From positions 63,798,001 to 63,862,000 of the forward strand of contig OX597819.1 of NCBI GenBank assembly GCA_951406725.2: 64,000 nt of DNA, in the 5' to 3' direction. This DNA comes from Octopus vulgaris (Eukaryota). Position numbers and translations under genes: made by a program. Positions 9,412 through 62,480 of the stretch are shown one piece after another. Every line of letters begins with the position of its first letter. Position 1 is the stretch's first letter. The notes beneath the pieces were generated by a model that had not been told where the DNA came from, searched no databases, and worked only from the letters and a program-made list of their open reading frames with translations.

Positions 9412-9515
9412 TAAATTTGCTACCCGGGTAGCAAATTTACGTCAGAAAGCACGGTTGAAGCTACATGCCAAGGGCAGAAATCAAGTGCTTTCGTGTGGAA
9501 ATTGGTGTGTTTTTT
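9412..9515 (+). mobile_element. Short PLE-like terminal fragment (family 3) starting with a perfect 28-bp palindrome
   Basis: taaatttgctacccgggtagcaaattta at 9412-9439, then sequence homologous to 43370-43465; sits between (TA)n and (CTAT)n. Confidence 0.6.
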
Positions 9516-9704
9516 TACTTTTTATCTATCTATCTATCTATCTATCTATCTATCTATCTATCTATCTATCTATCTATCTATCTATCTATCTATCTATCTA
9601 TCTATATATATATATATATATATATATGTGTGTGTGTGTTTGTGTGTGTGTGTGTGTGTGTTTGTGTATGTGTGCGTGTACGTGTATATGTATATATGTG
9701 TACG

Positions 9705-10575
9705 TTGATTGATAATAATACCGTTCCAGACGCTTTTATATGCGACACTAGATAAGTTTATAGACACACACCATACAGCTTAGAATGACCATTCGTCCAC
9801 TACCATACCACTCCCCAGATAATTAAGATTTAATTTACAAGACTCACCAAAACATCAATCCTAATCCATCATCTCTAACCGCCATGTATTTTTCTGTATC
9901 TCTTTATTCTTATCTCACTTTATCTTTATGCCCACTTTTTTATTTTTTCACCTTTATCCTTTTATATTTCGACTTTATTTATTTCGCTTCTTTATCTTTA
10001 TTTTTATTTCCGTTATTTTTTACTTTGCATTTTACTCCTTACCCTTTAGGTCTTGTACCTTCTACACTGTCACAATACATTTCTAGAATTTATGACAATA
10101 TACATGACATCCTTTGTATCTTTATATACTTATTTATTTACATATTTACTCTTTTACTACATTTTGCACTTACTATTATCCTGTATAATCATGTTTAAAT
10201 TTATACATATACTTTTCCTCTTTATGATCCCAACTTTATTAAAGATTCACCCTCTTCCAACTCTTTCTCTCAACATCCAAACCCCTCATTCTTTATCGAG
10301 TGAAAAACAGTATGGACGTTTTGTTTTGGTGTCTCGCTGTGCCATATACGACTATGAGGATTTACCTTCCCAATGAAACTCGTTTTTTTCCCAAACTTTT
10401 TCTCAAACCTGCTATAATGTAATATATGTCTTTGGTGTGGTAATTGTACGCGGCTGAAGAAGGCTGTTGACCTACATGTTATATCAATTATGCATTGATA
10501 TAAATTATTCAATAAAGCCAGAAACATATGTACCGCAAAATCCTTTGCATCCTGTTTTGCTTTTGATAATATATC
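9705..10575 (+). mobile_element. Penelope-like element 3' end / pseudo-LTR (family 1)
   Basis: Starts with IIPFQTLLYATLDKFIDTHHTA*N (resembles a GIY-YIG C-terminus), then a T-rich UTR; 10290-10570 is homologous to 25620-26240 and carries an HHR motif. Confidence 0.65.
10450..10536 (+). ncRNA. Type I hammerhead ribozyme motif with extended stem II (family 1)
   Basis: GCGG-CUGAAGA-aGGCU...AUAUCAAU uaugc AUUGAUAU...AGCCa-GAAA-CAUAUG-UA-CCGC. The G10.1-C11.1 pair is lost (A/A), so this copy may be inactive. Confidence 0.7.
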
Positions 10576-59700: not shown

Positions 59701-62334
59701 GTTTAGTCAACGTAATCTCAAGGATTTCCATTCAAATCGTATATTAAATTTGAACATTGCGTGAGATTTCACGCTTCTATGCATTTAAAGTTGATCGAAA
59801 AGGAATTCTTTTTATCAATAAACCAGTAGAGAAACAATGTGAAAAATGTGTTAGTTTAATAAAGTTTTGTGATTTATTATATATCGAATATACATCATGT
59901 GTATGTACCTGAAAAAAAAACCCAACAAATATTGTGGATACGTGATTGCAGGTGTTTTCAGATCAGACAAAAAGATAGTATACAAAACACAACAGAGTTA
60001 TATTAAATGAAATAGACATTGAATGTGTGTGTGAGTTTGTTAGGTATCTTTAGAAACGACGCAACGTTAAGCTTTCTATTTACATAAAAGAAGATTCTAA
60101 GGTTTCTTACGATTGTAAAAGTGATAGATCTATGGTTGATTTTAAAAGGAATCCAATATTTGGTCAGCTGAATAAACATCTTGTTGTAAACCATCAACAA
60201 TACTTTCCTCACTCTGTCGGCTTGCAATTTATATATATATATATACATACATACATACACACACACACACACACACATATATATATATATATATATATAT
60301 ATATATATATATATATATCCAAAGAGAGAGAGAGAGAGAGAGAGAGAGAGCGGACTGTGCAAATAGTGGTACCTATGTATGTATATATATATATATATAT
60401 ATATATATATATATATATATATATATATGCATGCGTGTGTGTGTGTGTGTGTGTGTGTGTGTGTGACAAATTGCAGAGAAATAAATAGACGTAAAGAAAA
60501 ACTAGGCTGACAGTGAAACTAAGTTGTACCAATACAGTGAATAAAACAAAACGACCGAAAAATATAGCTATATATAATTTTCAATTAAATACCGTTGTCA
60601 CAGAGAGTTGCGCCTTTTTTTTTTTTTCTGTAGAAAAAGGAAACACGGTAGCGCGTGGGCGGGAATAAAACGTGTGGCGAAATGTTCGTATACCAAACTT
60701 TGATAACGTTTTTTTTATCTACGAATATTTAAAAATATACTGCTGATATATGTATATTAAGAGTGAATTAGTTATAAATGTATATTTGTATACATACAGT
60801 CACAGATATACAAACATACAGGCACACATGTATATGCATACATTCATACATATATAGGTGTACCTATATACCTAAATAGTTACATATATATAATATATAT
60901 ATATATGTATATATGTATGTATACATGTATGTATATATGTATGTACAGATGTATCTATGTATATATGTATATATATATATATATATATATATACATGTAT
61001 GTATGTATACATATATACATAGTTAAATCTGTACATACATACACACATACATACATACATACATACATATATATATATATATGTATATACATACATATAT
61101 ATATATATATATATATATATATATATATATATATATATAAGTATATACATATAGTGAGAAAGAAAGGAAAGAGAAATTGAGAGAGAAACATAGAGTGATG
61201 TATGTTCTCTACTACTGCTACAGCAGAGTATACATTTACATTAGAGAATACACACCAAAGGCTAAATATATTATATTAAATATATTTTAGTTTGAAATAG
61301 TTTTGAATGTTTTCTAAACTTACAAGACGGAGTTCAAATGTTAGCCATATATATGCAGAAAAACATAACTATTTTGGGAAAACATTCAAATGATACGTTA
61401 TTCGTTTTATAAAATGATCATTTCAAAGGAGATGAAAATGATATTAGTTCGACATTAATAACTAGATTTGTGTTAACGTCGCCTTTACATTTATATGGAT
61501 GTAGGCATACATGTAAGTTTGTATGGGTGTGTATATATCGAAATGTATATATATACAGATGTGTGCATATGTACATACAATAGGTAGTTTCATGCTTACA
61601 ATATGCATATATATATATATATATATATATATATATATATATATATATATATATATAATTATTAACAAGGGAATAATGCAAATAATACAAACATATATAT
61701 ATATATATGTAGATAGACAGACAGACAGATAGATAGATAGATAATGATAATGATATATATATAATGATATATATATATATATATATATATATATATATAT
61801 ATATATATATATATATATCCACATATATTTACATACACATTCTTACAGCTATCTAAGTCATCGATCTAAGATTCTAATCTATGTATCTACCAGTGCATGT
61901 AGATCTATGTTTATATCTAATACACAATTACAAATACACATATGTACACATGCATATATATATATATTTATATACATACACACACAAGCACACACATATT
62001 TATGCAGATGTAGATATATATATATATATATAGAACGTAGGCAGTTTTGTGCAATATAAAACCAAAAAGGAATATTCAGTCGTCTGTAATTGAGTCTGAA
62101 TTTGCTCAGTAGCAACTCTGTTGTTAGAAATAAGAGTTAATATCCTTAGAACTGCATGGAAGCACAGTCATAGATTCACTGGACTAGCTTAGTGTCGTCT
62201 GTAAAATTTTAGATTCTTCAACAGTGACTACTCAGTTGCTGAATGGCTTAGATAAATACTCACTACCAGTAAATATTTTTACAATATGAAATTACGACTG
62301 AGGGAAATGCTAGTGTAGAAATTACATATATATA

Positions 62335-62480
62335 TATTTTTTATTTTCTCTCCTTGTTTCTTTCTGCGTTCCTTTCTGTGGAAGAGCGTAGGCTCGAAAC
62401 GTAGAAGACTTTCACTTCCTGAACGCTAAACTAATACATCTGTTTGCTGTCTACACCACCTGTCTTGTGAATTCTCCCCA
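62335..62480 (+). mobile_element. PLE-like terminal module family 5 with HHR-like motif at 62372-62407
   Basis: ctttctgtggaagagcgtaggctcgaaacgtagaag...ctaatacatctgttt...ctacaccacct; bounded by TA repeats. Confidence 0.65.

Follow-up and report, generated by a model that had tools for sequence, protein, structure and literature searches.

Penelope-like elements (PLEs) of the Hydra clade are described by Craig et al. 2021 (PMC8557442) as encoding a C-terminal GIY-YIG domain, DKT and RWK-like motifs, a CxCX5C linker and CxxC/CxH motifs. A hammerhead ribozyme (HHR) lies at their 3' end, and they are found inserted at (TA)n with an inverted, 5'-truncated copy, frequently with a tail at one end. 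Neptune-type PLEs are characterized in the same source by a CX2-5CxxC linker and a bias towards microsatellites. Minimal HHRs of metazoan PLEs have already been reported as opposite-strand pairs 100-700 bp apart, and solo minimal HHRs have mostly been ascribed to truncated PLEs (Cervera and De la Pena 2014, PMC4209133). Head-to-head is the commonest arrangement (PMC3846280), and how such inverted insertions are formed is given as an open question in both PMC8557442 and PMC3846280. The present analysis bears on that question. It concerns a stretch of 64,000 bp from Octopus vulgaris (contig OX597819.1, positions 63,798,001 to 63,862,000; hereafter the window), in which short modules, several with hammerhead motifs, lie at TA repeats. 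We consider it quite probable that the modules previously listed there are the 5'-truncated 3' ends of several PLEs bearing open reading frames (ORFs), inserted in TA repeats, and that their head-to-head pairs arose by priming on both strands.

Modules and their parent elements

The window, with 33% GC, is rich in TA runs. Its BLAST comparison with itself finds every module that an earlier sequence-only reading had listed, all of the listed coordinates being repeated modules. Their 3' ends adjoin TA runs or TA-like sequence, whereas, outside runs, a (TA)≥5 run is found within 15 bp of only 4.9% of window positions; that the modules are repeated and end at TA was thus borne out. We name them A (10250-10651 and 25622-26241), B (43314-43958), D (14276-14376), E (50031/50695, 53927 and 62338) and F (42955-43283), with C for the sequences at 9420 and 43370, which had been taken as a further family (Table 1). 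The home genome (2.8 Gb in 227 contigs) was searched with them; its loci and contigs are numbered with the prefixes L and C, respectively, the window lying on contig C6. By first-look counts, all of them lower bounds, A has at least 1823 candidates, B 1523, E 1835, F 1511 and D 27. The reading given above draws on ORF links for A, B, D and E, on 3' ends fixed at two sites, on mostly ragged 5' ends, on the presence of one tail per two-ended insertion and on rare variants common to both arms. Among PLE features, 5' truncation, an inverted 5'-truncated copy, an optional tail and an HHR near the 3' end (canonical in A and B, variant in D and E) were all found.

The clearest ORF links are those of B. 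Long copies (L111-L114) have open frames of 351-466 amino acids directly upstream, comprising an Asn-rich linker and a GIY-YIG domain, and of 41 loci, representing 36 independent insertions, 18 have a main arm that runs into the part coding for GIY-YIG. CxxC and CxH are present in the frames, which share 30% identity over 246 amino acids with the ORF of locus L250 discussed below; the CxCX5C linker was not seen in the recovered frames, which cover no N-terminus. Pfam support is weak: GIY-YIG was returned for L106 only (E = 0.0015), and the B proteins were not recognised. The parent of B would be a Hydra-like PLE, clades being assigned here and below by motif. B copies are young, at about 2-4% divergence. 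The sequence of C directly follows the first 3' end of B in genomic copies; C is therefore not a separate family but the ~155-bp tail downstream of B's HHR. For D, the C-terminus of a GIY-YIG domain is encoded upstream in L151, L169 and L170, only the endonuclease end being recovered. An apparent link between D and A at L105 was rejected as two separate insertions side by side.

For A, the number of candidates falls from 1823 at the HHR to 39 some 750 bp upstream (both lower bounds). Locus L250 holds an intact ORF of 850 amino acids, in which DKT, CxCX5C, CxxC and CxH can all be read, with RWA in place of RWK, and an A-like HHR (75%) lies 1.9 kb downstream of it. On contig C16, an ORF relic is followed downstream by an A end in sense orientation and preceded upstream by an inverted one, and endonuclease matches lie upstream of A candidates in the same orientation on C8, C16, C20 and the C21/C35/C36 group. 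The tail of the A copy at 10250-10651 matches an inverted piece at the 5' end of the ORF relic L161. By its motifs, A appears to be the 3' end of a Hydra-clade PLE. The L250 ORF (5424-7973, minus strand) is not recognised by Pfam, which found nothing relevant there, and contig C31 lists related open frames of 835-842 amino acids. The first 20 kb of C21, together with C35 and C36, consist of repeated blocks in which a Hydra-type endonuclease and an A-like end lie 6.6-7.5 kb apart; these blocks lie near a contig start and on small contigs, and are likely a segmental or subtelomeric duplication. A hammerhead-like piece within L161 was considered as part of A's parent and rejected, being another family inserted in a TA run.

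The ORF link of E depends on how loci are chosen. None of 30 loci selected on the HHR extends far enough to reach an ORF, whereas 8 of 25 selected on the upstream untranslated region (UTR) extend into an endonuclease frame that includes a CX4CXXC linker; the 5' ends of the latter set are ragged and spread over 1.5 kb. Because of this linker, an initial 'Poseidon' label for E's parent was dropped, and E is assigned by motif to a Neptune-type PLE. The sequence-only reading had linked the modules to PLEs, which is correct in view of the ORF-continuous copies; the reverse transcriptase (RT) relic at 43996 that it cited is, however, a Neptune-type neighbour and not B's parent. It had also proposed that the modules form a separate non-autonomous system, which does not hold for those it listed, A, B/C, D and E being the 3' ends of ORF-bearing PLEs. 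As the outcome that would count against such a system, it had named random 5' breakpoints and alignment to PLE 3' ends. PLE coding sequence lies upstream of A, B/C, D and E, and this is therefore the outcome for these modules, save that the 5' ends of E cluster.

Two-ended insertions

A, B and F each have two alternative 3' ends, with or without a tail of ~75, 155 and 40 bp, respectively. With duplicated loci counted once (L006/026, L049/050, L057/058, L033/034/042/043, L117/119/120/124, L237/267 and L308/309), copies whose 5' end is fused to an inverted 3' end make up 18 of 37 insertions of A, 19 of 36 of B, 4 of ~67 of F taken in positional order and 1 of 28 of E. The junctions mostly overlap by 1-8 bases or carry a few filler bases. 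The two arms are opposite in tail state in 18 of 19 cases for B (p = 3.8e-5), 16 of 18 for A (p = 6.6e-4) and 8 of 10 for F (p = 0.055; binomial at 0.5 throughout, a value qualified for F by the rarity of tails in its single-arm copies). Overall, 42 of 47 two-ended insertions have one tail. That a tail often occurs at one end is already in print as a qualitative statement (PMC8557442); the counted rule was not found in the literature covered, subscription papers such as Arkhipova 2006 being outside its scope.

The relative extent of the arms is also informative. In 8 of 18 pairs of B and 8 of 14 of A, the arm without a tail is the one that reaches further 5', and among these the arms of 5 B and 4 A pairs are disjoint or nearly so; such pairs were therefore not made directly by fold-back of a tailed complementary DNA (cDNA). 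Furthermore, minor variants are common to both arms two to three times as often as to unrelated copies (23 versus 7.1 expected in 9 pairs of A, 18 versus 8.8 in 11 pairs of B and 4 versus 1.6 in 5 pairs of F).

The purified protein of a Poseidon PLE (PAc) cuts and extends both DNA strands at an AT-rich target, starts reverse transcription at two sites that define the tail and is predicted to form a dimer (Frangieh et al. 2024, PMC11167929). On balance, we favour an origin of the pairs as two target-primed cDNAs that derive from one donor, each using a different one of the two start sites, and are joined head-to-head. An RT-endonuclease dimer would nick both strands of (TA)n; with RNA from one donor, the tail-bearing cDNA would be initiated at the distal site and its partner at the proximal one; and both would usually stop early and then be joined head-to-head via a few bases of microhomology.

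The main competing account accepts the modules as PLE 3' ends but has the pairs formed by self-priming or fold-back, of cDNA or of antisense RNA, the second arm stopping at the proximal, TA-like site and the asymmetry resulting from subsequent deletion. A self-priming model has been put forward for head-to-head PLE copies (Arkhipova et al. 2013, PMC3846280), and the sequence-only reading had likewise called the palindromes fold-backs. This would explain the rare variants common to both arms, the roughly half of pairs that are nested, a few near-perfect palindromes (L049/L050, L183, L195 and L005) and, if first strands begin at the distal site, the single tail. For the remainder, however, it requires frequent deletion, 16 of 32 pairs having the longer tail-less arm and 9 being disjoint, and B is mostly asymmetric in spite of its youth. 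Both start sites are, moreover, primed directly from cut DNA in vitro (PMC11167929). Fold-back thus fits about half of the two-ended insertions, and as their general origin we regard it as unlikely, though less so than the remaining alternatives.

One of these is that the palindromes are generic inverted duplications at (TA)n cruciforms, unrelated to retrotransposition. This description does hold for the inverted duplication at 49735-51174, it would cover the duplicated 75-bp flank of the A palindrome, and other TA-centred host palindromes exist (L002). Most two-ended insertions of A, B and F, however, have their outer ends exactly on element 3' sites and element sequence at their centre, and tail-bearing inverted arms have no counterpart in the main arm, so we hold a generic origin to be highly improbable.

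Several points weigh against the preferred reading of truncated PLE ends paired by two-strand priming. The A palindrome of the window lacks a tail on both arms and has its 75-bp flank duplicated, and L016, L178, L270 and L347 also violate the tail rule. Nested arms (10 of 18 pairs in B, 6 of 14 in A) fit fold-back equally well, disjoint arms could likewise result if a perfect palindrome later lost sequence asymmetrically, and the in vitro work records no strand difference in RT start site (PMC11167929). The link of A to an ORF has to bridge 2-7 kb of UTR that is of low complexity and contains other insertions, and the L250 ORF, although intact, is a ~70%-identical relative. The 5' ends of E, in a sample ranked by identity (L063-L090), lie not far upstream of the ribozyme core and fall within 23 nt (reference positions 259-281) in 21 of 28 cases, which simple random truncation does not predict; truncation is therefore not purely random, and the preferred boundary may be a transcript start or an RT stop. 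With regard to sampling, the A and B loci are best-identity matches rather than a random sample; D was excluded from the tail tally, as three sites and low complexity make its ends ambiguous; and three tail states were scored by eye (A at L022, A at L006/L026 with ~650 bp between the arms, and F in the window).

A more elaborate scheme adds further parts to coupled two-strand insertion with one start site per strand, and hence exactly one tail in each head-to-head copy: an HHR palindrome that perhaps pairs two RNAs, a ribozyme variant in F active only as a dimer (intermolecular stem II, GAAU core) and an E boundary set by cDNA running to a transcript start in the upstream pseudo-long terminal repeat (pseudo-LTR). 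We offer it tentatively, the chance that all parts hold together being rather below even.

Hammerhead motifs

A strict type I descriptor, run on the window and 20 shuffles, finds three canonical minimal HHRs in the window (25754-, 26109+ and 43594-) and none in any shuffle. A relaxed descriptor, composed after the motifs had been seen, gives 9 window matches against 0-1 per shuffle. Rfam gives a weak match for B (Hammerhead_1 against 43517-43600, minus strand: 18.1 bits, E = 0.038, under the gathering score of 34) and no hammerhead match in A. The 150 listed of 308 matches in a whole-window Rfam scan are all microsatellites matched to microRNA models. The claim that five families bear HHRs stands for A, B, D and E, in canonical or variant form, and fails for C, which has no HHR motif. 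The ribozyme strand was said to point outward in three palindromes, which is true of A and B; that of E is a host inverted duplication and not a head-to-head dimer.

In alignments of sequences retrieved for their similarity to the respective motif, the HHR core is unchanged in 61-63 of 63 rows for A and in 25-27 of 27 for B. The E core, CUGU-N-GA-A, varies freely only at position 7 (69 rows), as a hammerhead would, and in D 19 of 24 rows carry C in place of the conserved A9. Some of the listed copies are degenerate: that at 10450 is without the closing base of stem II, that at 43832 reads CTAATGA and that at 53958 is decayed. Because the copies are closely similar, covariation is thin: the only positions that change yet stay paired are pair 5 of stem II in B (2 of 27 rows) and pair 2 of stem II in A. 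Similar variant hammerhead cores may be among those reported by Lunse et al. 2017.

The elements extend ~55-200 nt past the predicted HHR cleavage site, and insertion ends are therefore unlike cleavage ends. The Poseidon PLE protein needs no HHR cleavage (PMC11167929). The HHR would accordingly seem to be a passenger of the 3' UTR or pseudo-LTR, with cleavage not needed for insertion. Further minimal-hammerhead families occur in the flanking DNA of the loci (L161 at 8206-8440; L163 after 2400; L074, L101, L116, L123 and L209), and the genome therefore holds many more PLE 3'-end families than the window shows.

An ORF-less unit

The F palindrome (42955-43283) was missing from the earlier list. 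F is a unit of ~730 bp that forms head-to-tail repeats in arrays of 2-4 units, a truncated copy of the unit preceding, as in a pseudo-LTR; of 70 loci taken in positional order, ~19 were seen by eye to extend to the unit start or to continue into the next unit. No junction of F with a PLE ORF was found among 25 loci chosen on the window arm, 25 on the unit start, 30 on the inner region and 70 in positional order (overlapping samples). Nor was a parent element found, endonuclease matches in L234, L307, L327, L334 and L338 being separated from F by TA runs or unrelated DNA. A 28-nt core has 1885 exact genomic matches, against 0 for a reversed control. F has an HHR-like motif with CUGAAGA, a 1-nt stem II loop and GAAU; neither HHR descriptor matches it, and Rfam finds no hammerhead in the unit. 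In positional order, ~30 of 70 5' ends (L281-L350) fall within 50 nt, shortly upstream of the ribozyme-like core, a clustering partly forced by the search motif. A splice-donor-like GTAAGT lies just past the tail of the unit (window 42955-43283; L234, L276 and L289).

From this architecture we judge F a probable non-autonomous PLE, which would be mobilised in trans by the same PLE machinery. Retrozymes are themselves regarded as PLE derivatives (bioRxiv 10.64898/2026.07.22.740005; PMC7229834). F is not called a retrozyme because a complete type I HHR in each unit was looked for and not found.

It is here that the proposal of a dedicated non-autonomous, ribozyme-processed (retrozyme-like) system comes closest to the data: F fits it in part, as an ORF-less unit in partial tandems with an abundant core, and it could accommodate the preferred 5' boundary of E and the conservation of HHR cores and stems. 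Extended to all the modules, it meets the continuity of A, B/C, D and E with PLE ORFs along a gradient of truncation, a C without HHR, insertion ends that do not match cleavage ends and an F motif that escapes both descriptor and Rfam. It is refuted for B and E by their ORF-continuous copies and, for the listed modules together, we consider it most improbable.

TA repeats and neighbouring features

The features of the window are collected in Table 1. Other host inverted duplications centred on or ended by (TA)n were observed, including L002 at 631-885 and 95-317, some ~99% identical. Possibly, such duplications derive from cruciform or snap-back repair, independently of PLE dimers. Elsewhere in the window, two open frames (193 and 198 amino acids) at 33931-35106 (plus strand) resemble the C-terminus of an RTE-type long interspersed nuclear element reverse transcriptase, and fragments at 15401-16305 and 28363-28635 (minus strand) resemble Tc1/mariner-type transposases.

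Table 1. Modules and related features of the window, by position
Feature	Position	Strand	Remarks
Lone diverged fragment of B tail	9414..9509	-	79% to 43374-43460; no HHR
A copy, putative 3' end of Hydra-clade PLE, with tail	10250..10651	+	Degenerate HHR core ~10455; adjoins (TA)n; 80% to 26052-26228
D fragment, 3' UTR piece of GIY-YIG PLE	14276..14376	+	HHR with A9 to C core variant
Hydra-like GIY-YIG relic, decayed	24675..24953	+	After Asn-rich linker; 34% to L161 endonuclease
Inverted copy of 75-bp flank 26278-26352	25469..25543	-	98.7% identity; host flank inside A palindrome
A left arm, without tail	25622..25954	-	Canonical minimal HHR at 25754
A right arm, without tail	25949..26241	+	Canonical minimal HHR at 26109; long stem II, palindromic loop III
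F left arm (42955-43101) and tail remnant (42899-42920, by eye)	42899..43101	-	Remnant beyond expanded TA run
F right arm, without tail	43145..43283	+	Atypical HHR-like motif: CUGAAGA, palindromic stem II, GAAU for GAAA
B left arm with ~155-bp tail	43314..43831	-	Canonical minimal HHR at 43594; 43314-43466 is the 'family' formerly placed at 43370
B right arm, without tail	43829..43958	+	HHR core mutated, CTAATGA
Neptune-type PLE RT/endonuclease relic, decayed	43996..45770	-	Own 3' end at TA run; independent neighbour
Host inverted duplication, ~730 bp	49735..51174	.	Centred on TA run ~50413-50485; host sequence on both sides of E
E copy	50031..50214	-	Passenger inside host inverted duplication 49735-51174
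E copy, 3' end of Neptune-type PLE (by motif)	50695..50880	+	Minimal HHR, CUGU-N-GA-A core; stem III a 4-nt palindrome
E copy, decayed	53927..54090	+	Similarity to other E copies
E copy	62338..62482	+	Variant minimal HHR at 62376

Comparison with known systems

It is already published for PLEs that truncated copies stand head-to-head, that the tail is optional, that TA is targeted and that minimal HHRs occur in pairs on opposite strands. The modules described here may be new members of known PLE clades, and the supplementary HHR lists of PMC8557442 may already include these families. A-type ends resemble Hydra-clade PLEs in domain motifs, 3' HHR, (TA)n insertion and inverted truncated copies (PMC8557442). 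The 3' UTR of A's parent, however, is at least ~2 kb and rich in TG/TA repeats, whereas Hydra elements are described as <3 kb, and tails of ~75 bp (A) and 155 bp (B) compare with 30-40 in that clade (PMC8557442). E's parent and the relic at 43996 are like Neptune-type PLEs in having CX4CXXC before GIY-YIG and in lying in TA repeats; unlike them, as characterized in PMC8557442, E seldom occurs as an inverted pair (1 of 28) and its 5' ends favour one boundary, the clade being assigned by motif.

With the minimal HHRs of metazoan PLEs (PMC4209133), the modules share the type I motif and a tiny palindromic helix III. They depart from those described there in the very long stem II of A and B, the core change of A6 to U in E, that of A9 to C in most copies of D, and GAAU in F. 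Like non-LTR retrozymes and non-autonomous PLEs (PMC7229834, bioRxiv 10.64898/2026.07.22.740005; MRC1 in PMC8557442), F is ORF-less, repeated head-to-tail and PLE-like in architecture, and its ~730 bp falls inside the range of 51-972 bp reported for retrozyme families in those sources. Unlike non-LTR retrozymes, F has no recognisable canonical or minimal HHR, and A, B, D and E, being continuous with PLE ORFs, do not lack coding sequence. F is a further candidate for a non-autonomous PLE, one whose ribozyme-like core is unusual.

Finally, the insertions resemble the activity of Poseidon PAc in vitro (PMC11167929) in the two start sites that set the tail and in the use of both strands. They differ in that a coupling of start sites is not among the results reported for PAc in the account cited, whereas the genomic pairs suggest one site per strand. 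The count of one tail in 42 of 47 insertions, taken with the disjoint arms, makes this a sharply defined prediction for the in vitro assay of PLE activity that already exists.

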